From assembly GCF_964213995.1 (NCBI RefSeq), contig NC_135804.1:59396001-59460000 (forward strand): a stretch of 64,000 bases of DNA, given 5' to 3'. Source of the DNA: Mustelus asterias. Lineage: Eukaryota. Shown here piece after piece: positions 1,352 through 45,574 of the stretch (position 1 is the stretch's first letter; every line of letters begins with the position of its first letter). The translations under genes and the position numbers were made by a program. The notes under the pieces are model-generated. The model searched no databases and had not been told where the DNA came from. It was given only the letters and a program-made list of their open reading frames with translations.

Positions 1352-1462
1352 GTCGCGACAGTACCTCGTCCTCATCTTATTTACAGATTTTTGGGTGCGC
1401 AGGCTTCACAATGATGGTTTTGCTGCTGCTGATCATCATGAGAATGCTGGGCAACTATAAAG
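1352..1462 (+). CDS. Transmembrane exon of an IgSF ITIM receptor (paralog A; extracellular exons lie upstream of the window)
   Basis: Acceptor tctttcag, donor gtagga, 111 nt, phase 1-1, open: xRDSTSSSSYLQIFGCAGFTMMVLLLLIIMRMLGNYK. Uncharged hydrophobic span; aligns with the minus-strand TM exon at 19192-19308 (shared GCA motif). Confidence 0.75.
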
Positions 1463-3269: not shown

Positions 3270-3332
3270 ACCTCGCAAGACGCATTTGATAACCCGCTGA
3301 CTTACGCAGAAGTCGAACTAATTGGTTCTTAG
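3270..3332 (+). CDS. Terminal coding exon of paralog A with ITIM (LTYAEV)
   Basis: Acceptor tctttatag, phase 0: TSQDAFDNPLTYAEVELIGS*; homologous to the minus-strand terminal exon at 13803-13971. Confidence 0.75.
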   Translation, partial: TSQDAFDNPLTYAEVELIGS

Positions 3333-4239
3333 AAAAAGGAAGTCCTAGAGGCAAGGAAAAGAGCGTAGAATGCGCAGCCACGTGGAATGTACGACAAGAA
3401 ATATAAGTGCCGAATGTCCACACACAACCAAATTTCAATTAATGCGAATACTCGCCTTTTACTTTATTTCTTTACGCCTTTTACGTTACGCTTGCAATTA
3501 CGGCAGAGTTCTCACTAGAGCAGAACAAAGCGGATGTCAATAATTTACTGTCAGTGAATGTCCGCTTCAGCTTAACGTGGCTTGTAAGGTAATCAAAGAC
3601 TGCAATTTGCATGGAATCATAACGTGATGGGAACGTCCCCTTCTCGGTTGTTACCCTACTTATAAAATTCCTTGGAAAAGGTTATGCCTCGCTAATAAGC
3701 GTTTTACTTTATTCTTACTGCTAAACACCCGAGCTCATCCTGAAATCTGAATCTTATATTTTTGTGGAATATAAAATTTCACCAACAAGTTAAAAATGCC
3801 ATACATTTAAAAATATTTTAAAGTTTTACCTTGTATCTGAGCCCAATCATGACCGTTAATTTTGTTGTCTGCAAATGAAAAAGAAAAATTAATCTTCCTG
3901 GTTTGTTGTGTGTGAATAATTCAGTGTGGTGGGCTGCTTACTTGTTTGTTTGCATTGCCAATGATACAGCAAAAGGTATTTCCCTGACTTGACCTTGGAT
4001 GTAAACTACCATCGACGAAGAGGGATGTTATGCAACAGAGATCGCTGCATCTTTTTGGGCAGCATTCTTTGAGGTCAGAGACCAGAACCATTGCTTTGGT
4101 GCTGACTAGAAAACTCACTGCGATAACACATCTATGTCCAAACACGATAGTGGCTCAGGAAATGCTTGTTATTAATGTGAAACTTGCGAGCTACACCAAC
4201 GATTACAATTGACTGCAAAAGATCAGCATTGCTGCTGCA

Positions 4240-12838: not shown

Positions 12839-13802
12839 AAGTGATCTGAAACATAGACATGTAATTTGTTGTACATTCACCAGCATTTTGCAGATCTTTG
12901 TCATTCGATGTGGAATGGCAGAAAACTGGGCTAACTTAGTCAAGCATACCGTGATTCAGAAAATACAGATGATGTTTTATTTCCTTGTAGGATTATTTGA
13001 AGAAAGAACGGAGAGGATAGATAAAGGTAATGTTGTCGATATGGATGTATGGGGTTTAGTAGCTCTTCGAAGCAAATAGTTGGGATCTTCAAAACGGAAT
13101 TGGATATATATTTGAAAAGGCGAAAAACGGCAGAGCGTTGGGGAAAAGCTCGAAGTTGAGATGAATTGCTACACTCTTTCGAAATATCAACTGTATGGAC
13201 CCCAGGCCTTCCTTTCGTCATGTACGTTTGTATGATTTTACACGGCCACGTGTGTAGATGCAGGTTTGAGTGACGAAGTACAACTACCAGCTACTTTTGT
13301 ATTTGGTGGACGGATTTATAAAGTTGAGCTCCACCCGTTTCACATCAGGAGCGTATCGAGACTGGAAGTCATAATGCAGCAACGCCAGACATAAAACAAT
13401 ATCCAGGTTTTATAGTATCAATCGCAAAATGGGTACGATTTGTTGTTTTGTAAGAGATCGGGTCCACGTTTTTTCTGATATTGTGAGACTTCTTACTGTG
13501 CCCATGTTTTTCCAGCAGTCATGGATGCTGTTAGGAATAGCAACGTGCTTAGCGTATCATTGCAATGGAAAGAGAAGAGACGTCTCATCAATTAAATAAA
13601 ACAGATATAACCATAAGCTATGACAGAGTAGCTACCATTTTCTGCAAGGTAGTAAAAACAACATTCATCAGCAAATCGAAGAGTAATTAACAGTGGAAGG
13701 CAACATTCTCAGAACTATTATTGGAATTATCTTACATCTTGGAAGGATGATATCACACCGTTCATACACATCTGGAATGATATAGCAGAGAAATGTTAAT
13801 CG

Positions 13803-13971
13803 CTACTTGATTCTTACTTCTGTACAGAGTGTCTCGGTTGTTGCTTTTCTTTCGCTCTGCAACTGGACATACTCCGTGCTCATTTCATCTTACTGCATTT
13901 TCCCTTTTTTCTGAGTTGGCAAATGCCAGAGTCGCGTATGTCTGCTCGTGTCGTTCTGTCGTGCGTTGTGT
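13803..13971 (-). pseudogene. Terminal exon with tyrosine motifs
   Basis: Acceptor tattacag; TQRTTERHEQTYATLAFANSEK /frameshift/ DEMSTEYVQLQSERKATTETLCTEVRIK*. Confidence 0.75.
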
Positions 13972-14559
13972 CTGTAATATAACCATTTAGAAATAATGTT
14001 AACTTAAAATGGCGTTGAAAAAACATATATCCAAAGTTACCAGAAATATATGCCCTTCGTTCTCTCATGATCGTCAACGTTAAGTTCGTGATCTATAGTT
14101 TTTCTCATCTATTACTCATTCATACTGGAGTGTAGACGGTTTTCTTGTCTTTATGGTTATGTCTCGGAATTTTTCTGGTTCTACTCAAATCTAATGCAGC
14201 ACAATGCACGATCCCCTCTGTTGCTCTCTGCATAGGCCGGAACTAAAATGTTTGATTCTGTGGCCAGTTTATTTTCTTCTGCAGGTTCCACACCACTGAG
14301 TATAGAATAGGCAGATTGACCTGAGCTGCAAAACAATTTCACAAGTGTAATTTGTTTTGATATGCGTAAAGGCGAATATTAGCACCCTGGTCACTATATA
14401 CTCGCAGAATGCTATTTACATGGAGAAAGACTGCAAAGCTCTGTAGCACAGAGGGCCCGAGTGTTCTACACATGATTCTTAAAAAGCTGGTGTGCCGCTA
14501 AATGATTAGGAACGAAAATTGAATGTTGATGGTTATAGTGAGGCGATGTCACCTTAACT

Positions 14560-17500
14560 TGGTTAAGGGAAGGACAGGATTGGCAGCTTAACATTCCAGG
14601 ATACAGATGTTTCAAGCGGGATAGAGGGGGATGTAAAAGGGGTGGGGGAGTTGCACTATTGGTTTAGGAGAATATCGCAGCTGCGGGAGAACACCTCGGA
14701 GGGCTCATACAGCGAAGCAATGTGGATAGAGCTCAGGAATAGGAAGGGTGTAGTCGCAATGTTGGGGGTGTACTTTAGGCCGTCCAACTGCCAGCGGGAG
14801 ATAAGAGAACAGGTATGGAGGCAGATTTTGGCAAGGTGCAAAAGTAGCAGGGTTGTTAAGGTGGGAGATTTTATCTTCCCCTACATTGACTGGGACTCAC
14901 TTAGTGCTAGAGGCATGGATAGGGTAGAGTTTGTAAGGAACATCCAGAGAGCTTCTTGAAACCGCATGTAGATAATCCAACCAGGGAAGGGGCCATACTG
15001 CATCTGGTATTGGGGAATGAGCTCGGCTAGGTGGTCGAGGTAACAGTAGGAGAGCAGTTCGGGAACAGTGACCACAATTCAGTAAGCTTTAAGGTACTGG
15101 TGCAGAAAGATAAGGTGCTAAATTGGGGTAAGGCTACTTACAGCAATATTAGGCAGGAAATGAATAATGTAGATTGGGGGCACATGTTTGAGGGCAAATC
15201 AACATCTGGCATGTGGGAGGCTTTCAAGTGTAAGTTGATAGGGATTCAGGACCGGCACGTTCTTGTAAGGATGAAGGATAGGTTTGGCAAGTTTTGGAAA
15301 CCTTGGATAACGAGAAATATTGTGAGCCTAGTCAAAGAGAAAAAGGAAGAATTTGTCAAGGCTAGGAGGCTGGGTAACACACGAAACAAGCGTGGAATAC
15401 AAGGAAAATAGAAAGAAACCTAAGCAAGCAGTAAGGAGGGCTAAAAGGGGTCACGAAAAAGCATTGGCCAGCAGGATTAAGGAAAATCCCAAGGCTTTTT
15501 ATACATATATAAAGAGCAAGAGTGTAGCCAGGGAGTGGACAGTGGAGGGAATCTATGCGTGGAGCCAGAGGAAATGGGCAATGGATTAAATGAGTATTTT
15601 GCATCATTACTCACCAAAGAGTAGGACTTGGTAATGATGAGTCTGGGAAAGGATGTGTAGATAGTTTGAGTCATGTTGAGGTATTGAGGTTCTTGAGAAA
15701 CATTAAGGTAGAGAGGTCCCCAGGGTATGTTGGGATATACCCCAGAAAACTGAGAGAGGCAAGGGAGGAAATTGCTGGGGCATTGAGAGAAATCTTTGTG
15801 TCCTCACTGCCTACAGCAGAGGTCCCAGAGGATTGGAGAACAGCCAATGTTGTTCCTTTGCTTAAGGAGGGTAGCAGGACTAATCCAGGTAATTACAGGC
15901 CGGTGAGACTTACATCAGTGGTAGGGAAATTATTGGAGAGGATTCTTCGAGAAAGGATTTATTCCAACTTGGAAATAAGTGGACATATTAACGAGAGGCA
16001 ACATGGTTTTGTAAAGGGGAGGTCGTGTCTCACTAACTTGATTGAGTTTTTCGAGGAAGTGACGAAAATGATTGATGACGTTAGGGCAGTGGATGTTGTC
16101 TACATGGACTTCAGTAAGGACTCTGACAAGGTTCCTCATGGCAGACTGGTACAGATGACGAAGTCGCACGGGATCAGAGGTAAACTGGCAATACAAAATT
16201 AGCTTGGTCATAGAAGACAGAGGGTACCAGTGGAAGTGTGCGATTCTGAATGGAGGGCTGTGACAAGTGGCGTTCCTCGGGCATCAGTGCTGGGACCTTT
16301 GTCGTTTGTAATATATATAAATGATTTGGAGGAAAATATAACTGGTTTGATTAGTAAATTTGAGGACGACACAAAGGTTGGTGGTTTTGCGGATAGTAAT
16401 GAGGATCATCAGAGGATACAGCAGGATATAGATCGGTTGTAGACTTGGGCAGAGAGATGGCAGATGGAATTTGATCCGGACAAATGTGATGTAATGCATT
16501 TTGGAAGGTCTAATACAGATGGGAAATATACAGTAAATGGCAGAACCCTTAAGAGCATTGATAGGCAGAGGGATCTGGGTGTACAGGGACATAGGTCACT
16601 GAAAGAGAGAAGGAGAAGGTAGTCAAGAAGGCATACGGCATGCTTGCCTTCATCGGCTGGGATACTGACTTTAACAATTGGAAGTCACGGTAGCACAGTG
16701 GTTAGCACTGCTGCTTCACAGCGCCAGGGACCTGGGTTCGATTCCCGGCTTGGGTCACTGTCTGTGTGGAGTTTGCACATTCTCCTCGTGTCTGCGTGGG
16801 TTTCCTCCGGGTGCTCCGGTTTCCTCCCACAGTCCAAAGATGTGCGGGTTAGGTTGATTGGCCATGCTAAAATTGCCCTTAGTGTCCTGGGATGCGTAGA
16901 TTAGAGGGATTAGTGGGTAAAATATGTAGGGATATGGGGGTAGGGCCTGGGTGGGATTGTGGTCGGTGCAGACTCGATGGGCCGAATGGCCTCTCTCTGT
17001 ACTGTAGGGTTTCTATGATTTCTTCTTCTATGATGTTGCAGCTTTATAGAACCTTAGTTCGGCCGTACTTGAAATATAGTGTTCAGTTCTGGTCGCCACA
17101 CTACCAGAAGGATGTGGAGGCTTTGGAGAGGGTACAGAAAAAAATTACTAAGATGTTGCCTGGTATGGAGGGCATTAGCTATGAGGAGAGGTTGGAAAAA
17201 CTTGGTTTGTTCTCAGTGGAACGACGGAAGTTGAGGGGGCGACCTGATAGAAGTCTACAAGATTATGAGAGGCATGGACAGCGTGCATAGTCAGAATCTT
17301 TTTCCCAGGTGGAAGAGTCAATTACTGGGGGGGCATAAGTTCAAAGTGCGACGGCAAGGCTTAAAGGAGATGTACGAGGCAGGTTTTATTACAGAGGGTG
17401 GTGGGTGCCTGGAACTCGCTGCCCGGGGAGATAGTGGAAGCAGATACGGTAGTGACTTTTAAGGGGCGTCTGGACAAATACATGAATATGATGGAAATGG

Positions 17501-17612
17501 ACGGATATGGTCTCTGAAAGTGTAGGAGGTTTTACTTAAGTCGAGCGTTATGATCGGTGCATGTTTGGAGGGTCGAAGGGCCTGTTCCTATGCTGTAATT
17601 TTCTTTGTTCTT
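14560..17612 (+). mobile_element. Long degenerate CR1 LINE (APE endonuclease + RT), intronic and antisense to paralog B
   Basis: Fragments EAMWIELRN...GDF, SDHNSV, NYRPVRLTS, VYMDFSK and KFEDDTK. Confidence 0.92.
16686..17020 (+). mobile_element. HE1-type SINE nested in CR1
   Basis: Full head, core and tail interrupting the CR1 RT sequence. Confidence 0.92.
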
Positions 17613-17624
17613 TGCCCTTTTTTC

Positions 17625-18165
17625 TAAAAGAGGGAAGTTGTACTGCAGCTGTACACGGCCTTGTTGAGAGCAGATCCGGAATACTGTGTATAGTTTTGGT
17701 TCTGATATTTGAAATATATATACATAATTGCGTTAGAAACTGTTCAGATAAGGTTCAGAAGATTCATTCCTGGGACGAGGGACATATCTTATGGAAAAAT
17801 ATGCTGAGGGGAATTGACAGGGCTGATGCGTGGAGGTTGCTCCCATCTGTGGAGAGTCCAGTGCTCGGCGAGACAGTTTAACAAGGATAAGCCTCCCTTT
17901 TAAAATGGGATGAGAGGAATCTTTTTCTTTCACAGAGTCGTTAGTATAGACAATGCTGTTCCCCAGAGTGAAGTGCATGCTGGGTCATTGAATTAATTCA
18001 AGTTGACATATTCTTGATAGACAGGGGAATTAAAGATTATCGGGGTATGAACATACAGGAAAGTGGAGTTGAGAACAAAATCGGATCAACCAGGATCTTG
18101 TTGGATGGCGGAAGAGATCGCAGGGCTGAATGATCTACTCCAGCTCCTGAGTCTAATGTTCCATA
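17625..18165 (+). mobile_element. Old CR1 3' fragment
   Basis: Decayed CR1 RT C-terminus and 3' UTR. Confidence 0.65.
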
Positions 18166-18527
18166 TTGCTACTATAATTAATAGTTAAAGCAGTCAACTT
18201 GCATTCCACAAAAATGTTAAAGCAAGTGTTCGCATTTTTTATAATGTATGTTTCTTAAGTCCACTGAAGAAATGAAGCCATCAATTCCTAACTAGGCGTA
18301 TTTTCAACGAAACACGCGGTTTTACTCCCTGTTAAATCATCTTTTTAAAACTAGCATTGATTCGCCGAATGGAACGTATATTGTTAACTTGCACTTCAAG
18401 GCCACATTGTGATCGATCACAGTTTTAGTAATTGAACGTAAATTGCTTTGACATGATTATAACCTATCCAATATATTAATCTTTCTTGACATTGCATCCG
18501 TATGCCTCTATAAGTGAATAAATATAT

Positions 18528-18566
18528 CGGTTCTTCACGGCGGATTCGTCCAGTTACACACTTTTT
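18528..18566 (-). pseudogene. Short cytoplasmic exon of paralog B
   Basis: Acceptor gctttccag; KCVTGRIRREEP; one base too long for phase 1-0; donor reads AT; cgccgtgaagaaccg resembles agccgtgacaaatct of paralog A. Confidence 0.55.
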
Positions 18567-19191
18567 CTGGAAAGCAAAGAAATGTGACGTTGAAATAATG
18601 GAATATTTACAAGCTCCAGTGATGGCGAAGCCATTTTAAGAGTCACAACAAAGCCGAAAGTGCTCCTCGGCTTCTCGTTGTGCAAATAACGTTTGAAATC
18701 TCAGCCACTGTCGCGAACAGAAGTTCTGAACATGATGTGAGTCAGCAATAAGGAATAGGGCAGGAGATTTCAGTTGTGGTGGGAGACCAGCTATGATATA
18801 TTTGTATGGGAAACAGGCTCGAGTGGCCGTATGGCCGAATCCTGTTGCTGGTGTGTGGAATGATTATTGTGGTCGGAACTTCAAACTCTTCCAGTCAAGG
18901 TAGTTGCGCCTCCACAGGACAATGATTGATCACATGACTATGTGTCAGGGGACATGTCATTTATCATTCCATAAAAGGAAAATTTTCGTTGCAACACCTA
19001 GTAAATGATCTCAATGTCTATTCTGAGTCTGTGAGAATTTGTGCTTTATAAAATGCATTTGAAGCATTCGCCCCTTCTGAAAACAGGAATGTCATTGTTT
19101 TCACATTTAAGTCCCAATGGATTTCTCCCTGGCCCCTGTTTCGCGGAGGCTATCATACAGTCTGAGACTTTGCTTCAAATTAAAATTTTGC

Positions 19192-19308
19192 CTTAATTAT
19201 TTTGCAGTTGAAATCGCATCGCACTGACGACCATTTGCACAAACAAAAATCCAAGTCCAACCTAAGCACACCCAGGAACCCAGAGCTAAAGCGAGTTAAC
19301 GGCACTCA
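19192..19308 (-). pseudogene. Transmembrane exon with stops
   Basis: Acceptor ctcacag, 117 nt, phase 1-1: VSAVNSL*LWVPGCA*VGLGFLFVQMVVSAMRFQLQNN*; donor GC. Confidence 0.75.
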
Positions 19309-20415
19309 CTGTGAGATTAATAAGAACATTGGTTATGACGGATAGCTAGCTAAAATAGGCCCGAAGATAGTTTATTGTTTGAACTGCAGGGGCAATTTCA
19401 AGAACTCGCTATTCTACAGCAGCAATAAGAACGTTCAAATTGTAACTCTTTGGTGTAATATTTGAAGTAACTTCCATAAATAGATCGAACATTTTGGATT
19501 GAACAACGAAAAGGATTTGAAGGATCCTCGGACACTGTTTCAGAAGCATTGGAATGCGAAAGGGATCAAAGGTCAATAATCATTAACCGTGTTCTTGTTT
19601 TTGACCTTCCTTATTCAACACCATATCCATTGAGGAATTATATCGCATTTTCGCAAGCGTTTCTTTAGTGTCAGCGCAACATCTTGAATTGCAATAATTG
19701 GGCCAATAAACAATTTCAACGATCGGTTCTGTGTTTTACTAAACTAAGGGTCACTGAAACGTATAGGAGATGAACGGGCGAGTGGTCTTTTTTTTCTGTT
19801 GGCGAAAGAATTGTTAACATTTTGATTCATTGAGCAACCTTTACTGTAACGAGGCTACCTGCCGATCTTAAATGAGATTCATGATACAGAGCCAAATTCA
19901 TCCCGCTGTAGGTGAATGAAGGGCAGCAGTTAGCTATGGCTTTAATTTCAGAAATATGTTATAGAAATGAAGTGGTGATGAGGATGATGGATGGTGAGCC
20001 ATGGGGAGGAGGAGTTGGGGGTTGTGGAATGAAGGAAAGGTTGAGGTTCTGGGGAGGTTAAGGTTGGAAGCTACAGTGAGCAAACTTTAAAAAAACACAA
20101 ACAAGCATGCAAAATTCTGGAATAGAAATTAAATTCTCCAGATTATAATCGTTATATGTCAAATGAAATAAATGGAAAATAAATACGGGTGGACTGAGAT
20201 CATTTGCTTGGCATGTGATATAGCTTGATTTTAAAATGCATGGTGTTCACATGCATTATTTAATGCTTAAAACAGTGAATGTAATGCTTTCTTTAATATT
20301 TCCCAGGCAGTGTCGTGCATTAATTCTTCAGTATTAACAGTTACAAAGATTAGATTACGTCACTTCACCAAATTAACAGCAATTCTTTCCTCTTTTCGAT
20401 CTGTCGACCTGGTAA

Positions 20416-20726
20416 CTTGGTTATATTTAGAAATAGCGTGGGTGACAACAGTAGGAGCTTGGAGAGAGGCGTGAGATACCGAACAGGTGTAATTGGCGTC
20501 GCGTGGAACAGGTTGTACCACAGCCAAAGAGCTTGAGACTTTGTAGAGTCCCTCGGGATTTTGCATTTTATTGTTGCGTATGCCTAATGCAATCTCTATG
20601 CCATTTTATACCAAATTAGGGTGAAATTGTCCGGATAAAATGCAGCCGTTTTGCACAAAAGAGTCAAAGACAGAGCGGGATTCCATTCACAAAGTTTGGA
20701 AAGAATCTTCAGTGGGGTTGGGGGCA
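20416..20726 (-). pseudogene. C1-set Ig exon
   Basis: Acceptor tatttcgcag; VPPTPLKILS...LTLLCKTAAFYPDNFTLIWYK /-1 frameshift/ NGIEI...NPEGLYKVSSSL...YTCSVSHASL (CxxxxFYP, W and YxCxVxH motifs). Confidence 0.93.
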
Positions 20727-20997
20727 CTGCGAAATAGAAAATCAACCAATTACGGTCACCGCGCAACGTTGCGAGACATTAGGCTTTCGCTTTATTCATT
20801 TGATGATAGTAGCACAATTGGAAAGAGCAATCTCCTGTTTGTTTTAAAATTTTCGCAGATCCTCAGCACATATCTCACCAGATATCTCATAAACAAAGGC
20901 ATCAATTAATTTCTACGGGAGTTAGCAAGTCCAGGACTCTGAGTTATTCAGCAGACAATTTGCAACGTTCTGGTATTCAATGTTTCATGTTTGTAAT

Positions 20998-21810
20998 TTG
21001 GACAAATGACGAGGCAGAGTACAGGAATGAGATAAAGAATCTGGTAAACTGGTGCAGCAACAATAATCTCTCCCTCAATGTCAACAAAACGAAGGAGATT
21101 GTCATCGACTTCAGGAAGCGTAAAGGAGAACATGCCTCTGTCAACATCAATGGGGATGAAGTAGAAAGAATCAAGAGTTTCAAGTTTTTAGGTGTCCAGA
21201 TCACCAACAACCTGTCCTGGTCACCCCATGCCGATACTATAGTTAGGAAAGCCCACCAACGCCTCTACTTTCTCAGAAAACTAAGCAAATTTGGCATGTC
21301 AGCTACGACTCTCACCAACTTTTACAGATGCACTATAGAAAACATTCTTTCTGGTTGTATCACAGCTTGGGTATGGTTCCTGATCTGCCCAAGACTGCAA
21401 GGAAAAGTCATGAATGCAGCCCAATCCATCACGCAAACCAGCCTCCCATCCATTGACTCTGTCTACACTTCCCACTGCCTCGGCAAAGCAGCCAGCATAA
21501 TTAAGGGCCCCACGCATCCCGGACATTTTCGCTTCCACCTTCTTCCTTCGGGAAAAGGATACAAACGTCGGAGGTACGTACCAGCGGATTCAAGAACAGC
21601 TTCTTCCCTGCTGCTGTCAGACTTTTGAATGGACTTACCTTGCATTAAGTTGATCTTCCTCTACACCCTAGCTATGACTATAACGCTACATTCTGCACTC
21701 TCTCGTTTCCTTCTCTATGAACGGTATGTTTCATCTGTATAGCGCGCAAGAAACAATACTTTTCACTGTATGTTAACACATGTGACAATAATAAATCAAA
21801 TCAAATCAAA
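20998..21810 (+). mobile_element. Rex1/Babar-type LINE, 5'-truncated
   Basis: ORF with WCSNNNLSLNVNKTKEIVIDFRK, FKFLGVQI, QRLYFLRKL; (TCAAA)n tail. Confidence 0.85.
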
Positions 21811-21917
21811 AATATTTGGGGGCAATTTGGCCCACTACCTTCCTCCATATTTATAACAGTGACAGTGACAAATAATCTGCTGTTATAACTAAGGACTTTG
21901 TCAATCTGGAAGTGATT

Positions 21918-24055
21918 TAGAACATAGAACATAGAACATAGAACAGTACAGCACAGAACAGGCCCTTCGGCCCACGATGTTGTGCCGAGCTTTATCTGAA
22001 ACCAAGATCAAGCTATCCCACTCCCTATCATCCTGGTGTGCTCCATGTGCCTATCCAATAACCGCTTAAATGTTTCTAAAGTGTCTGACTCCACTATCAC
22101 TGCAGGCAGTCCATTCCACACCCCAACCACTCTCTGCGTAAAGAACCTACCTCTGATATCCGTCCTGTATCTCCCACCACGAACCCTATAGTTATGCCCC
22201 CTTGTAATAGCTCCATCCACCCGAGGAAATAGTCTTTGAACGTTCACTCTATCTATCTATCCCCTTCATCATTTTATACACCTCTATTAAGTCTCCCCTC
22301 AGCCTCCTCCGCTCCAGAGAGAATAGCCCTAGCTCCCTCAACCTTTCCTCATATGACCTACCCTCCAAACCAGGCAGCATCCTGGTAAATCTCCTCTGCA
22401 CTCCTTCCAGCGCTTCCACATCCTTCCTATAGTGAGGTGACCAGAACTGCACACAATATTCCAAATGTGGTCTCACCAAGGTCCTGTACAGTTGCAGCAT
22501 AACCCCACGGCTCTTAAACTCCAACCCCCTGTTAATAAAAGCTAACACACTACAGGCCTTCTTCACAGCTCTATTCACTTGAGTGGCAACCTTTAGAGAT
22601 CTGTGGATATGGACCCCAAGATCTCTCTGTTCCTCCACAGTCTTCAGAACCCTACCTTTGACCCTGTAATCCACATTTAAATTTGTCCTACCAAAATGAA
22701 TCACCTCACATTTATCAGGGTTAAACTCCATTTGCCATTTTCAGCCCAGCTTTGCATCCTATCTATGTCTCTTTGCAGTCTGCAACAGCCCTCCACCTCA
22801 TCCACTACTCCACCAATCTTGGTGTCATCAGCAAATTTACTGATCCACCCTTCAGCCCCCTCCTCTAAGTCATTAATAAAAATCACAAAGAGCAGAGGAC
22901 CAAGCACTGATCCCTGCGGCACACCGCTAGCAACCTGCCTCCAATCCGAAAATTTTCCATCGACCACCACCCTCTGTCTTCGGTCAGACAGCCAGTTGCC
23001 TATCCAATCGGCCAACTTTCCCTCTATCCCACACCTCCTCACTTTCATCATAAGCCGACCATGGGGGACCTTATCAAACGCCTTACTAAAATCCATGTAT
23101 ATGACATCAACTGCCCTACCTTCATCAACACACTTAGTTACCTCCTCAAAAAATTCTATCAAATTTGTGAGGCACGACTTGCCCTTCACGAATCCGTGCT
23201 GACTATCTCGGATTAATCCGCATCTTTCTAAATGGTCGTAAATCCCATCCCTAAGGACCCTTTCCATCAATTTACCAACCACCGAAGTAAGACTAACCGG
23301 TCTATAATTACCAGGGTCATTTCTATTCCCTTTCTTAAACAGAGGAACAACATTCGCCATTCTCCAGTCCTCTGGCACCATCCCCGTGGACAGCGAGGAC
23401 CCAAAGATCAACGCCAAAGGCTCTGCAATCTCATCCCTTGCCTCCCAAAGAATCCTAGGATACATTTCATCAGGCCCAGGGGACTTATCGACCTTCAGTT
23501 TATTCAAAACTGCCAAGACATCCTCCCTCCGAACATCTATTTCCTCCAGCCTATTAGCCTGTAACACCTTCTCTTCCTCAAAAACATGGCCCCTCTCCTT
23601 GGTGAACACTGAAGAAAAGTATTCATTCATCACCTCGCCTATCTCTACTGACTCCATACACAAGTTCCCACTACTGTCCTTGACCGGCCCTAACCTCACC
23701 CTGGTCATTCTTTTATTCCTCACATAAGAGTAAAAAGCCTTGGGGTTTTCCTTGATCCGACCCGCCAAGGACTTCTCATGTCCCCTCCTAGCTCTCCTAA
23801 GCCCCTTTTTCAGCTCATTCCTTGCTAACTTGTAACCCTCAATCGAGCCATCTGAACCTTGTTTCCTCATCCCGACATAAGCTTCCCTCTTCCTTTTCAC
23901 AAGACATTCCACCTCTTTTGTGAACCATGGTTCCCTCACTCGGCCATTTCCTCCCTGCCTGACAGGAACATACCTATCAAGGACATCCAGTATTTGTTCC
24001 TTGAAAAAATTCCACTTTTCATTAGTTCCTTTCTCTGACAGTTTCTGTTCCCAAC
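21918..24055 (-). mobile_element. Young CR1/HER1 LINE, 5'-truncated, near-intact RT
   Basis: 459-aa ORF with [10 protein letters not shown] and FADD, continued by the 160-aa and 79-aa ORFs; (TGTTCTA)n tail. Confidence 0.96.
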
Positions 24056-24539
24056 TGATTTCATAACCAAAAGCAAGCAACTGGTGAACTATATTGTGTT
24101 CAGGTAAACCACAGGGATTTCAGAAGCACAATTCCTCTGTAATTTTTGTTATTGGAGTTTTGGGAGGCGGAACGATCTGCGTTTCAAAAATAGGCCAAGA
24201 ACCTTGTATATGCTGGGAGGGGCTCATCAAATAAATAATTAAAATCAGTCTGATGCTTGGAATTCATTCCGAACATTGGCTATCAGCCATCAGATGTATG
24301 AATGTCTTTGGAGCCGGCGCCTACCTGCATAGTATTGATACATGTTGCAATATTCTGCCTGTGACATTGAATGTCTAAGTAACAGTTCGATTAAAAGAAC
24401 ACGGTTATAACAATTGGTCGTGAAGCGTAATAATAGTCATGCTATTAAGGACAAAGACGTGCAATAAAAAATTATGAAATAGCTCAGTTTATGTTCGGTA
24501 TATTTACGATTATTCCACTCTCCTGTTTTTCACACTTAC

Positions 24540-24859
24540 CATAAACAATTAGCTGTGATCGGGTTCCATTTCCCTGTACACCTCCTTGACACATCACAGT
24601 GCAGTGATAAACTCCAGAGTCGTAGAAATTTGCGTCCAGCAACTGGAAGATACTGAACCAATTGTTCTTCAGGCTAAATCGTTTTCTGCCATTGCCGCCT
24701 TCTCTAAGGTATTCAACCTCCCCATGTTTCCACCAATGCACTGTGATTCTCGAATAGTCCGGGATCTGGGGAACTCGCAGGCGAAGCTGATGTTTTCTCC
24801 TCTGGCTGCAATCTGTTCTTTGGGCATTTGAGTCACTCTGAACGAAATTTGGTCCGCAT
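24540..24859 (-). pseudogene. V-set Ig exon with J-like G strand
   Basis: ttttctgacag / gtaagt; 320 nt (321 expected). DADQISFRVTQMPKEQIAARGENISFACEFP /-1 frameshift/ QIPDYSRITVHWWK...FQLLDANFYDSGVYHCTVMCQGGVQGNGTRSQLIVY, with B-strand Cys, C-strand Trp and DSGVYxC. Confidence 0.93.
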
Positions 24860-25046
24860 CTGTCAGAAAATATAATCAATTCCAAGCTAGCCATATTAGA
24901 TGCCACACGTGAAAGTAAAAGAGAAAGGAAATATTTTCCAATACGAAATTACGAGTTACTAAATAATTGTGGATGTTGCTTCGGAAGCATTTTATAAACT
25001 AAAGTACTTGGGACAATGGATGGGAATGTACAAGTATAAGTGTTCC

Positions 25047-25086
25047 CTTGCAGACTCAGGCAGAGAAGAACCAGGCGCGCTGACAT
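25047..25086 (-). pseudogene. Leader exon of paralog B
   Basis: ATG...MSARLVLLCLSLQ + G (phase 1); donor reads GG instead of GT. Confidence 0.6.
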
Positions 25087-25234
25087 TCTGAGCAACTGAT
25101 TCAATTGATCATTCTCTACAATAACTGAACGTTTGCCGCTGTTAATAATAGTTTGCGGTAATTTGCAGTCAGATGCTTCGCAATGACATCTGTGTTCCTG
25201 TAACTGCAGGTTTAGAATATAGGCTTTTAAAATT

Positions 25235-27025
25235 CGAATCACTGTCGTGTTTTGTAACTTCTGCACGTATTGAATTGCTAAAAAAAAGGCATGTGTTATG
25301 CATGATACAAAGAACAAAGAACAAAGAACAATACAGCACAGGAACAGGCCCTTCGGCCCTCTATGCCCGCGCCGCTCCCTGGTCCAAACTAGACCATTTT
25401 TTGGTATCCCTCCATTCCCACTCCGTAACAGAAAATATTTGAGTGTTAGTTACAGAATTTACGTAAATTCGCGACGTCAGTTTTGTTTCTTGAAAGCTAA
25501 GATGGATAGTAAAGAAAAATAAGCGGATAACTGTTGGTTGGTTGGTCATTCTATTTTTTCAGAGAAGTTCAGAACACAAGCAGTCATAAGTTGTACACCA
25601 TCGTCAAAATCACTCATATTATAACAGTTGACTTTGATTAGGGCCCGTTGGGGTTCCACGAAAGCATCTTCCGTCTTCTCCTCACATAAATGGATCATCG
25701 TGACCCTCTATTCTCTGCTTTCACATATGCTTGTCTAGCTTCCACTTACATTCACATTTTACCATTTTTTCAACCATTACCCGTGATGGCATGTTTCACA
25801 CTTTTTCACGGTTTGGGTAAAGGAACGCATTTTTGATTTCCTAGTGATTTCAGCGAATCTCATCAGTTCTCATTTATTCTTTAGCATGCAGCACTCAAAA
25901 CAATAGTGAGCGGACATGGAAAGGTTTGCTTTCAGGTGTTGTACTGTGCTTGCAAGTGCAGCTGAGGGAAATTTGCAATTGTGGAGCGGAGAAATCGCAT
26001 ATGAGCAGGGGGTGATGGCAGCTGCTTTCAGAAGGCAAATATAGAACAAGGTATTTGAGGAAGAGGCCAGCAGTTGTGCGATCTTTTGCCGTAAACCGTG
26101 GATCAACAGGATTTAAGACCTAAAGATGGCATCGGGAGTTGCATTCTTCCCACTATTGTCAAGTCCGACATTCTGACTTGCCCGGTATTCTCCTCCAGAG
26201 GCGATTTCAGCACAGCGCTTCTTGCAGGTCCATTCATTCATCTCACTTACGACACCTCAGAGACCCTTTCGAGCAGCCAACAAACACATTCATCCTCACT
26301 CACTCAAATGCCTTCTGACAGATATGCACGAGAGGATATCTGACAACTCGGCAAGAGTCAGAGGCACTTAGTTTTGGGAAGGCAGAGGGGTCGGCCTCCA
26401 ACTGGCGGGATTTGGCAATGAATGGTCTTATGCTTCAATGTGCAGGCAGCTTTCAACCATGAGAAGACGGAAGGCACTTTCGTGGAGCCCCAACGAGCCC
26501 TAATCAAAGTGTACCATTATAATATGAGTGATTTTGACCATGGTGTACAACTTATGACTGCTTGCGTTCTGAACTTATCTGATACGTTAGAATGACCAAC
26601 CAACAATTATCCACTGATTTTTCTTTACTATCCATCTTAATTGCACCCCTGTTAGTTTTCAGGAAACAAAAGTGGCGTTGCGAGTTTAGGTAAATTCTGA
26701 AATTAAAATTCAAATATTTTCTGTTACGTGTCATCCATACCACATCCGTGTTTAGCAATTCAATACATGCATACGTTAAAAATCACGATGGTGATTCAAA
26801 CATACATACATATAATTTCGCGCTCCACCTTTCTGAGCACAAACTGTGTCAAAAGCTTCCACCTCATTGCTTCCGTTCCTTGTAGGAGAAAATATAAAAT
26901 AACTTGGCAAGAGTCAGAGAAAGACACGTAGTTTTCGGAGGGCAGAGGGGCCTGCATCCAAATGTCGGAAATTGGGCAATGCATGGTGTAATGTTTCAAT
27001 GTGCAGGCAACTTTGCACCATGAGG
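25235..27025. repeat. Inverted duplication (25235-25680 / 26461-26800) with flanking direct repeat (26347-26463 / 26902-27024)
   Basis: For example gcagtcataagttgtacacca vs tggtgtacaacttatgactgc; ggcaagagtcagag...caatgtgcaggca occurs twice. Confidence 0.85.
25309..25422 (-). mobile_element. CR1 3' tail
   Basis: (CAAAGAA)3 tail and ggcccttcggccc; absent from the duplicated arm at 26461-26800. Confidence 0.8.
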
Positions 27026-45335: not shown

Positions 45336-45574
45336 AATAAAACACTCCGACAAAATCTTCCAGAAAAGTATAAACGTTATTCTCGCATGATGGTTTATGT
45401 TACACTGGTGTTCTATGTTACTTTCTAATTTGTTACTCAGTCCCACCTGAGCGTAGAAGGCCCATCATCATTAAATTTATGTCTTGGAGCCTTTCTGGTT
45501 CTGCTGAGATCTAATGCAACAACATGTTCGTTCTCAAACGTTGCTACTGCATGGGTCAGAAAGAAAAGGCTTGT

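Follow-up and report, generated by a model that had tools for sequence, protein, structure and literature searches.

SIRP alpha, beta1 and gamma have two C1 domains after the V domain, and it is through a transmembrane (TM) Lys that activating SIRP is coupled to DAP12; NKp30, which has an NGT-type G strand and a TM Arg, belongs to the NKp30/XMIV-type receptors, whose ectodomain is V-only and whose genes are linked to the major histocompatibility complex (MHC). PRARP/VJC1, said to be the subject of Fu 2019 and Ohta 2019, is reportedly a non-rearranging VJ-C1-TM receptor with immunoreceptor tyrosine-based inhibitory and switch motifs (ITIM/ITSM) and a canonical J-like FGxG. Activating SIRP is described as coupling to DAP12 (PMC2915791), LILR as activating through an Arg-TM and FcR-gamma and inhibiting through ITIM and SHP (PMC10679719), PRARP/VJC1 as MHC-linked (PMC10751288), and UrIg and UrIg2 as having three and nine or more C1 domains, respectively, and being linked to the MHC or to the immunoglobulin (Ig)/T-cell receptor (TCR) complex (PMC12227049). 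The stretch of DNA analysed here (the window) comprises the 64,000 nucleotides from 59,396,001 to 59,460,000 of contig C4 (NC_135804.1) in the 3.68-Gb genome of Mustelus asterias. It holds a V(J)-C1 receptor gene that arose by duplication and has since decayed, and by analogy with the systems above the intact members of its family are probably paired inhibitory and activating immune receptors.

The gene lies on the minus strand of the window, with the ATG at 25086 and the stop at 13803, and aligning it to the colinear paralog at C4:59.237-59.246 Mb fixed the positions of seven exons with AG/GT-type borders:

25032..25086, minus strand: exon 1, leader (18 codons and 1 nt); donor GT retained, the 2 bases preceding it differing from the paralog.
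24540..24859, minus strand: exon 2, V domain, its J-like G strand joined in the germline; a 1-nt deletion near 24763, and Gly to Arg in the J-like motif.
20416..20726, minus strand: exon 3, C1-set domain; 1-nt deletion near 20607, and TT as donor at the family position, likewise in the paralog.
19192..19308, minus strand: exon 4, transmembrane, uncharged as in the inhibitory type; interrupted by three in-frame stops, with GC as donor.
18528..18566, minus strand: exon 5, short cytoplasmic; 5-nt deletion at the exon start, donor AT.
14126..14227, minus strand: exon 6, first ITIM (Tyr to Cys) and second Tyr motif; located by tblastn and the paralog exon.
13803..13971, minus strand: exon 7, the last, carrying the third Tyr motif and the fourth; one stop and a 2-nt deletion, and Cys in place of the last Tyr.

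The sequence-only reading had proposed six exons; its leader, V, C1, TM, short and Tyr-tail exons were all recovered, and the number is corrected to seven, since the exon at 14227-14126 had been overlooked. This exon is matched in tblastn by the tail of Heptranchias P0004 (E 5e-5), and its paralog counterpart keeps the ITIM intact. V and C1 are each split by a 1-nt deletion, and therefore the list of open reading frames shows half domains only, as that reading had noticed. It had also described an uncharged TM segment, which holds in the paralog, while the TM exon of the window itself carries three stops, and a J-like G strand (NGTRSQLIV) inside the V exon, which is indeed there, the window having CGA where the paralog has GGA (Gly). 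The claimed absence of recombination signal sequences (RSS) from the gene agrees with the finding of no RSS-like element in 13000-26000, where the V-C1 intron was not separately searched for a J segment; the only relaxed RSS match in the whole window is at 3928. The paralog V exon passes the Pfam V-set cut-off (30.1 vs 26 bits), and homolog C1 domains exceed that for the C1-set (53 and 61 bits vs 21). V and C1 are frameshifted, the TM exon is broken by stops, three donors are defective (TT after C1, GC after TM and AT after the short exon) and two motif tyrosines have turned to Cys (the first ITIM in exon 6 and the last Tyr in exon 7). The window gene is real but dead and makes no receptor now, and was rightly called a pseudogene; it is an old one and was of the inhibitory type.

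When the V half of the window gene was compared with the genome, all 53 matches (53/53) fell on C4, one at 54.66 Mb and the others in clusters at 58.79-59.96 and 67.6-70.0 Mb; the 36 matches to the C1 query were also all on C4, and the V and C1 matches are not chance. With a second, divergent V query, 53 of 54 matches were on C4 and included a new one, and there are thus at least 54 V exons in total. Within the fetched DNA, a C1 exon lies downstream of V in 52 of the 53 loci, from which 48 V and 49 C1 exons were recovered stop-free and with borders. Each gene has a single C1 among the genome loci listed, as do almost all database models, the exceptions (P0032, VCC; P0027, VCVC; P0009, CVC) looking like fused gene models. 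The V exon ends in G.G[ST].L.[VI] before the GT donor in 42 of 49 cases, and 32 of the 49 have an N-G-S/T sequon at this J-like end. An F/W-GxG J motif occurs in none of the 49 family V exons (in the window gene Asn instead of Phe/Trp precedes GxG), and a sequon at the J aromatic position would be expected to hinder antibody-style V-V pairing. The pN/pS ratio is 0.27-0.65 in seven of eight subfamily-domain sets, and two Mustelus asterias RefSeq proteins are 100% identical to C4 family genes in their tail and TM segments. Intact homologs with the proposed exon combination are present, and the shark family of one-V, one-C1 receptors with ITIM tails that had been postulated from the window alone does exist.

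The signalling parts of these receptors are of two types. Full-length homologs have tails with 2-5 Tyr motifs, such as that of P0004 (VHYAAL/TVYAQ/LTYATL/TDYAEL, spaced by 23, 14 and 23 residues), whose four-Tyr spacing is like that of SIRP-alpha; other members have an Arg near the outer TM end and a short tail. Out of 132 models with a family C1, the 86 with a TM were kept for a test, in which an embedded charge was defined as a charge followed by at most 19 uncharged residues. Two or more ITIM-like motifs occur in 0 of 11 models with embedded Arg/Lys vs 36 of the 75 others (p 0.002), and the median tail length is 18 vs 80 amino acids; the embedded charge is an Arg near the outer TM end in 10 of the 11 and a Lys in one. 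In two database pairs the ectodomains are 97% identical and the TM/tail types opposite, and in the Mustelus genome four V subfamilies, among them the one nearest to the window gene, hold both types, with identities between types of 86-98% in V and 75-98% in C1. Since ITIM/ITSM-tailed and short Arg-TM forms thus have domains 75-98% identical, a paired-receptor family is the reading preferred here. At C4:59,213,184 and 59,213,886, the ITIM exon is tandemly duplicated within one gene (L066), as in RefSeq model P0023.

Several points weigh against this reading. The charge rule was set after a first, cruder automatic TM classification had given 8/20 vs 42/65 (p 0.069), it missed some Arg-TM models, and the related sequences compared are not independent. 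If one motif or more is counted, the split is weak (3/11 charged-TM models vs 47/75 others, p 0.046), and predicted models with a short tail may have been truncated. One subfamily found in shark, ray and chimaera (P0068, P0071 and P0200; C4:59.051-59.069 Mb) has neither ITIM nor charged TM. Excess amino-acid change in V, as under positive selection, was not seen, apart from one subfamily whose ratio is 0.98. And in approximately unbiased (AU) tests on 33 V rows, with six outgroup rows of long or duplicate branches left out, the grouping of the family V with SIRP is not rejected (p 0.086). The ITIM-free subfamily has a Cys-rich juxtamembrane region and a basic tail with CxxC. In run X1, which we guess to be RNA, letters 118-425 of a 552-letter contig align with the C1 exon of an intact paralog, and the TM and V exons of that paralog are hit by gap rows of equal depth, as could be expected of a spliced transcript; no joint is shown, and the run is not counted as evidence.

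In a paired-receptor family, the V domain would serve to bind some surface ligand. Long-tailed members, once Src kinases had phosphorylated their tandem ITIM/ITSM tyrosines, would by analogy recruit SHP-1/SHP-2 and damp activation, and the short-tailed Arg-TM sisters, with nearly the same ectodomain, would couple to an adaptor with an immunoreceptor tyrosine-based activation motif, most likely FcR-gamma, and activate.

In database searches, the matches to P0001 were all (21/21) from sharks, rays or Callorhinchus, 53 of 56 profile matches were chondrichthyan, with an E-value gap from 2e-54 to 3e-15 before the next match, and all ten divergent single V-C1 matches looked up (10/10) were chondrichthyan. 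In an exhaustive search of 1.84 billion representatives, the best 150 of 4,648 matches were crowded by multi-domain proteins, and weak bony-vertebrate orthologs may have ranked below these 150. Ten non-family matches were turtle/snake multi-V, skink SIRP-like, B7-H6-like and UrIg2-like proteins, labels that are our own assignments. In the V and C1 trees, shark and ray sequences, in one case Callorhinchus too, share subfamilies, which argues that the expansion of the family is old. Its automatic RefSeq names are inconsistent (SIRP-alpha-like, SIRP-beta1-like, tapasin-related, CD276, MHC class II beta, NCR3LG1-like and Ig lambda), and the family is thus mislabelled in databases as SIRP, tapasin, CD276, MHC class II, B7-H6 or Ig lambda. 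No description of it was found in the literature, where Fu 2019, Ohta 2019, Flajnik 2023 and Flajnik 2012 may mention it, and no match to it is in the one supplement file of the elephant-shark paper that was available (PMC3964593). The chondrichthyan paired-receptor family is apparently undescribed, in line with the first reading's expectation of a poorly described one, and none of its genes could be matched 1:1 with a characterised ortholog. With more than 50 genes, brake and accelerator versions, and subfamilies common to sharks, rays and chimaera, it is a concrete candidate for the largely unknown receptors that tune the natural killer-like and myeloid cells of cartilaginous fish.

The family V forms one clade in two trees (99/97 and 89/85), separate from the Ig light chain (IgL), from UrIg-like sequences and from a second shark VJ-C1 cluster on contig C23, and the family C1 is one clade too (99/96); deep branches are weak, and those of C1 unresolved. 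These trees contain no TCR V, tapasin or PRARP sequences and a single SIRP-like protein, P0125, unnamed in its source and presumed SIRP-like from its motifs; the B7-H6 label of outgroups P0124, P0088, P0142 and P0097 is likewise our own. On the family V profile, sauropsid multi-V domains score 44-66 bits, shark NKp30-like exons 40-58, SIRP 28-34, IgL 21-24 and UrIg-like V 17-20; on the C1 profile, IgL-kappa-like C1 scores 55.6, IgM 52.7, MHC II beta 51.3 and SIRP 35-42.5 bits. The AlphaFold model of P0004 has two Ig domains with pLDDT mostly 80-90. As guides to relationship, Foldseek (Fab light chains and SIRP-alpha without a gap) and VIA-align (B7-family ties at Z 15-16) were not discriminating, and a single-sequence V model (pLDDT 52) was too poor to be used. 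The family is best seen as a lineage of its own, SIRP-like in logic, and is neither a demonstrated SIRP ortholog nor a demonstrated antigen-receptor ancestor. The special tie to a pre-RAG antigen-receptor precursor that the first reading had drawn is not borne out, as the family has its own V clade and a non-canonical J motif and is not on the MHC contig.

Other Ig-type loci were met in the same genome. The cluster at C23:0.08-1.12 Mb (L160-L163) is a second, unrelated germline VJ-C1 cluster with a canonical FGxG J and the C1 about 430 bases downstream, and would be a better PRARP candidate than the C4 family. On the MHC contig, two clusters of single-exon VJ genes (C8:7.1-7.3 and 20.4-21.2 Mb; L151-L159) resemble NKp30/XMIV; the 10 kb of DNA fetched gave no C1 match. 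C16:64.41-64.42 Mb (L166) is UrIg2-like and C8:1.85 Mb (L168) UrIg-like, judged by motif and by an arrangement with multiple C1 domains, and a CD28X-like VJ exon at C19:66.77-66.78 Mb (L164) is followed 7 kb downstream on the same strand by a C1-like exon.

Where the family came from can be explained in several ways. That its V is an offshoot of NKp30/XMIV-type V genes, which through exon shuffling acquired the C1 exon and the ITIM tail and moved out of the MHC, is a tentative possibility. The best non-family V scores are those of sauropsid multi-V domains (66 and 64.5 bits) and of one of the shark NKp30-like exons that lie on the MHC contig (58 bits); a turtle V query matches the MHC contig first, with 27 of 32 rows on C4, and AU tests do not reject the grouping with sauropsid multi-V (p 0.45) or with shark NKp30-like exons (p 0.185). 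However, the family and the shark NKp30-like exons stay apart in maximum-likelihood (ML) trees, the NKp30/XMIV label is our own from motifs, and short V domains (C-to-F span 41-45 vs 47-56) may attract each other. Such an origin is compatible with the paired-receptor reading. Rather unlikely, in our view, is that these genes are true shark SIRP orthologs which moved off the SIRP locus and lost, or never gained, one C1. The VJ+C1 ectodomain, the four-Tyr tail with its SIRP-alpha-like spacing, SIRP-alpha 2wng and SIRP-gamma as third and fourth in a PDB profile search, the frequent SIRP-like auto-names and the AU value given above would fit, and so would the lack of a competing SIRP in the 360 kb around the SEP-domain gene on C20 (50.41-50.77 Mb), where no Ig exon was found while a control stretch scored. 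Yet SEP-domain genes lie on C20 and C7, not C4; when a skink SIRP-like V was compared with the genome and 150 of the 402 candidates were scored, none of the 75 matches was on C4, the best family V ranks 11th and 3rd of 64 for two SIRP V domains, SIRP reaches 28-34 bits on the V profile vs 57-66 for NKp30-like and sauropsid multi-V domains, the ML trees, with P0125 as the single SIRP-like protein, leave the family and SIRP unjoined, and the activating members use Arg, not the DAP12-type Lys.

The remaining two explanations involve genomic position. MHC class II beta-type C1 exons are at C8:34.4-34.7 Mb, IgL is on C8 and C13, and the family is on C4; it is therefore not MHC-linked, a linkage that the first reading had proposed to test. 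That reading had noted the likeness of PRARP-type genes to the proposed antigen-receptor precursor; that the window gene is the PRARP/VJC1 ortholog of sharks and thus a remnant of this precursor, we hold to be very improbable: its VJ-C1-TM-ITIM/ITSM layout equals that of PRARP, but F/W-GxG is found in 0/49 V exons, the family is off the MHC contig, the C23 cluster with its canonical FGxG J is a better candidate, and grouping the family with that cluster, a stand-in as no PRARP sequence was compared, is rejected (AU p 0.018). In human, TCR alpha/delta is at 14q11.2 between NDRG2 and MMP14, SIRP is at 20p13 beside NSFL1C, and B7-H6 is linked to RPS13; the RPS13 marker is on C9, not C4, and a B7-H6-type position was rejected. 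C4 carries an NDRG gene at 58.54-58.57 Mb, 0.2 Mb from the first clustered family gene, a membrane-type MMP gene at 57.53 Mb with an MMP15-type tail, FTO at 42.9 Mb and a BRK-domain gene at 42.3 Mb, and the paralogous markers are on C7, C20 or unplaced contigs. Human NDRG1-4 lie at 8q24, 14q11, 20q and 16q21-22 (PMC12272907). From these markers and the human NDRG map, C4 appears as the 16q-type member of a four-way paralogon, and its segment is likely a sister of those carrying TCR alpha/delta (14q11) and SIRP (chromosome 20). The family near NDRG4/MMP15 could accordingly be a surviving ohnolog, the fourth sister of one VJ-C1 gene on the pre-duplication chromosome, whose other copies became SIRP and the RAG-invaded TCR alpha/delta-IgH complex (14q11); IgL-kappa-like and IgM, the best outsiders on the C1 profile, would agree. 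We consider this unlikely, because the 14q11-type markers are on small unplaced contigs without demonstrated link to shark TCR alpha/delta, the V trees place IgL and SIRP across the deepest supported branch, the deep C1 branches are unresolved, immune gene clusters relocate easily, and published models derive the receptor precursor from the proto-MHC chromosome (PMC10751288, PMC12227049). The position on C4 is a coincidence that fits an ohnolog origin, not a proof, and the trees give such an origin no support. If it were true, the pre-RAG receptor would have belonged to the paired innate kind and resided on the ancestral chromosome of 8q/14q11/16q/20, not in the proto-MHC; the family's place on a segment that has the TCR alpha/delta and SIRP regions as paralogs offers a testable alternative for the origin of antigen receptors.

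As for the paired-receptor family's copy in the window, a colinear duplicate at C4:59.225-59.247 Mb is 79-88% identical across most of window positions 1-26,758, and the window copy probably arose with this segmental duplication. Window gene and duplicate diverge by 11.0% in exons (122/1105) and 11.8% in introns (312/2645), which is near neutral; as exon divergence is about that of introns, the pair is under little constraint. The duplicate gene has the same C1 donor defect (TT) and has lost one C1 cysteine, and may therefore be decaying too. Four-gene blocks at C4:59.186-59.247 and 59.348-59.423 Mb keep order and orientation, which suggests a segmental duplication with a spacing of about 170 kb; C4:59.53-59.66 and 59.69-59.83 Mb likewise look duplicated, some exons being identical. 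Two sets of insertions interrupt the window gene:

14560..17620, plus strand: decayed LINE-type retroelement with a SINE (long and short interspersed elements) in intron 5; reverse transcriptase-like reading frames, multi-copy, at a gap in colinearity.
21000..24059, strand unassigned: two LINE-type insertions in the V-C1 intron, which the paralog lacks at the corresponding place.

The intron 5 elements are not at the corresponding place in the paralog either. Tail-to-tail with the window gene lies a neighbouring family gene, with a TM exon at 1352-1462 (plus strand), a frameshifted, stop-containing ITIM tail exon at about 3270-3400 (plus strand), and V and C1 exons just left of the window. At 45476-45544 (minus strand) there is an orphan relic of a first-ITIM exon, near which the window showed neither V nor C1.

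Compared with rearranging or germline-joined Ig/TCR genes, the window gene has no RSS, and the family has no F/W-GxG and is in a clade separate from IgL. B7-H6 (NCR3LG1) resembles the family in the V+C1 fold, in some RefSeq auto-names and in structure, where it ties with others as best match (Z 15.7, rmsd 3.3, 192 aligned), whereas B7-H6-like V and C1 fall into separate clades and the family has a J-like strand and ITIM tails. PRARP/VJC1 is likewise a non-rearranging VJ-C1-TM receptor with ITIM/ITSM, but the family lacks the canonical J motif and MHC linkage and forms a large paired cluster. UrIg/UrIg2 types, the top PDB sequence match by summed domains, are shark non-rearranging VJ receptors with C1 domains and a split leader (PMC12227049); they differ in that the family has one C1 and that UrIg V scores 17-20 bits on its profile. 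As in LILR/KIR, short-tailed activating Arg-TM forms and ITIM forms stand in one cluster (PMC10679719), with pseudogenes left by birth-and-death; unlike the family, LILR have 2-4 C2-type domains, and there is no sign of common descent. NKp30 (NCR3)/XMIV has no C1 and is on the MHC contig C8, in contrast to the family with its C1 on C4, but the family V scores highest there, and the NGT-type G strand and the Arg in the activating TM are common to both. Finally, the family differs from SIRP (alpha/SHPS-1, beta1 and gamma) in having one C1 instead of two, about 54 genes and an Arg-type TM, in a V that is not closest to SIRP V, and in its location in a 16q-type segment, not beside an NSFL1C-type gene; with SIRP it shares the single-exon VJ-type V followed by C1-set domain, the tandem ITIM/ITSM tail, and inhibitory and activating members with near-identical ectodomains.

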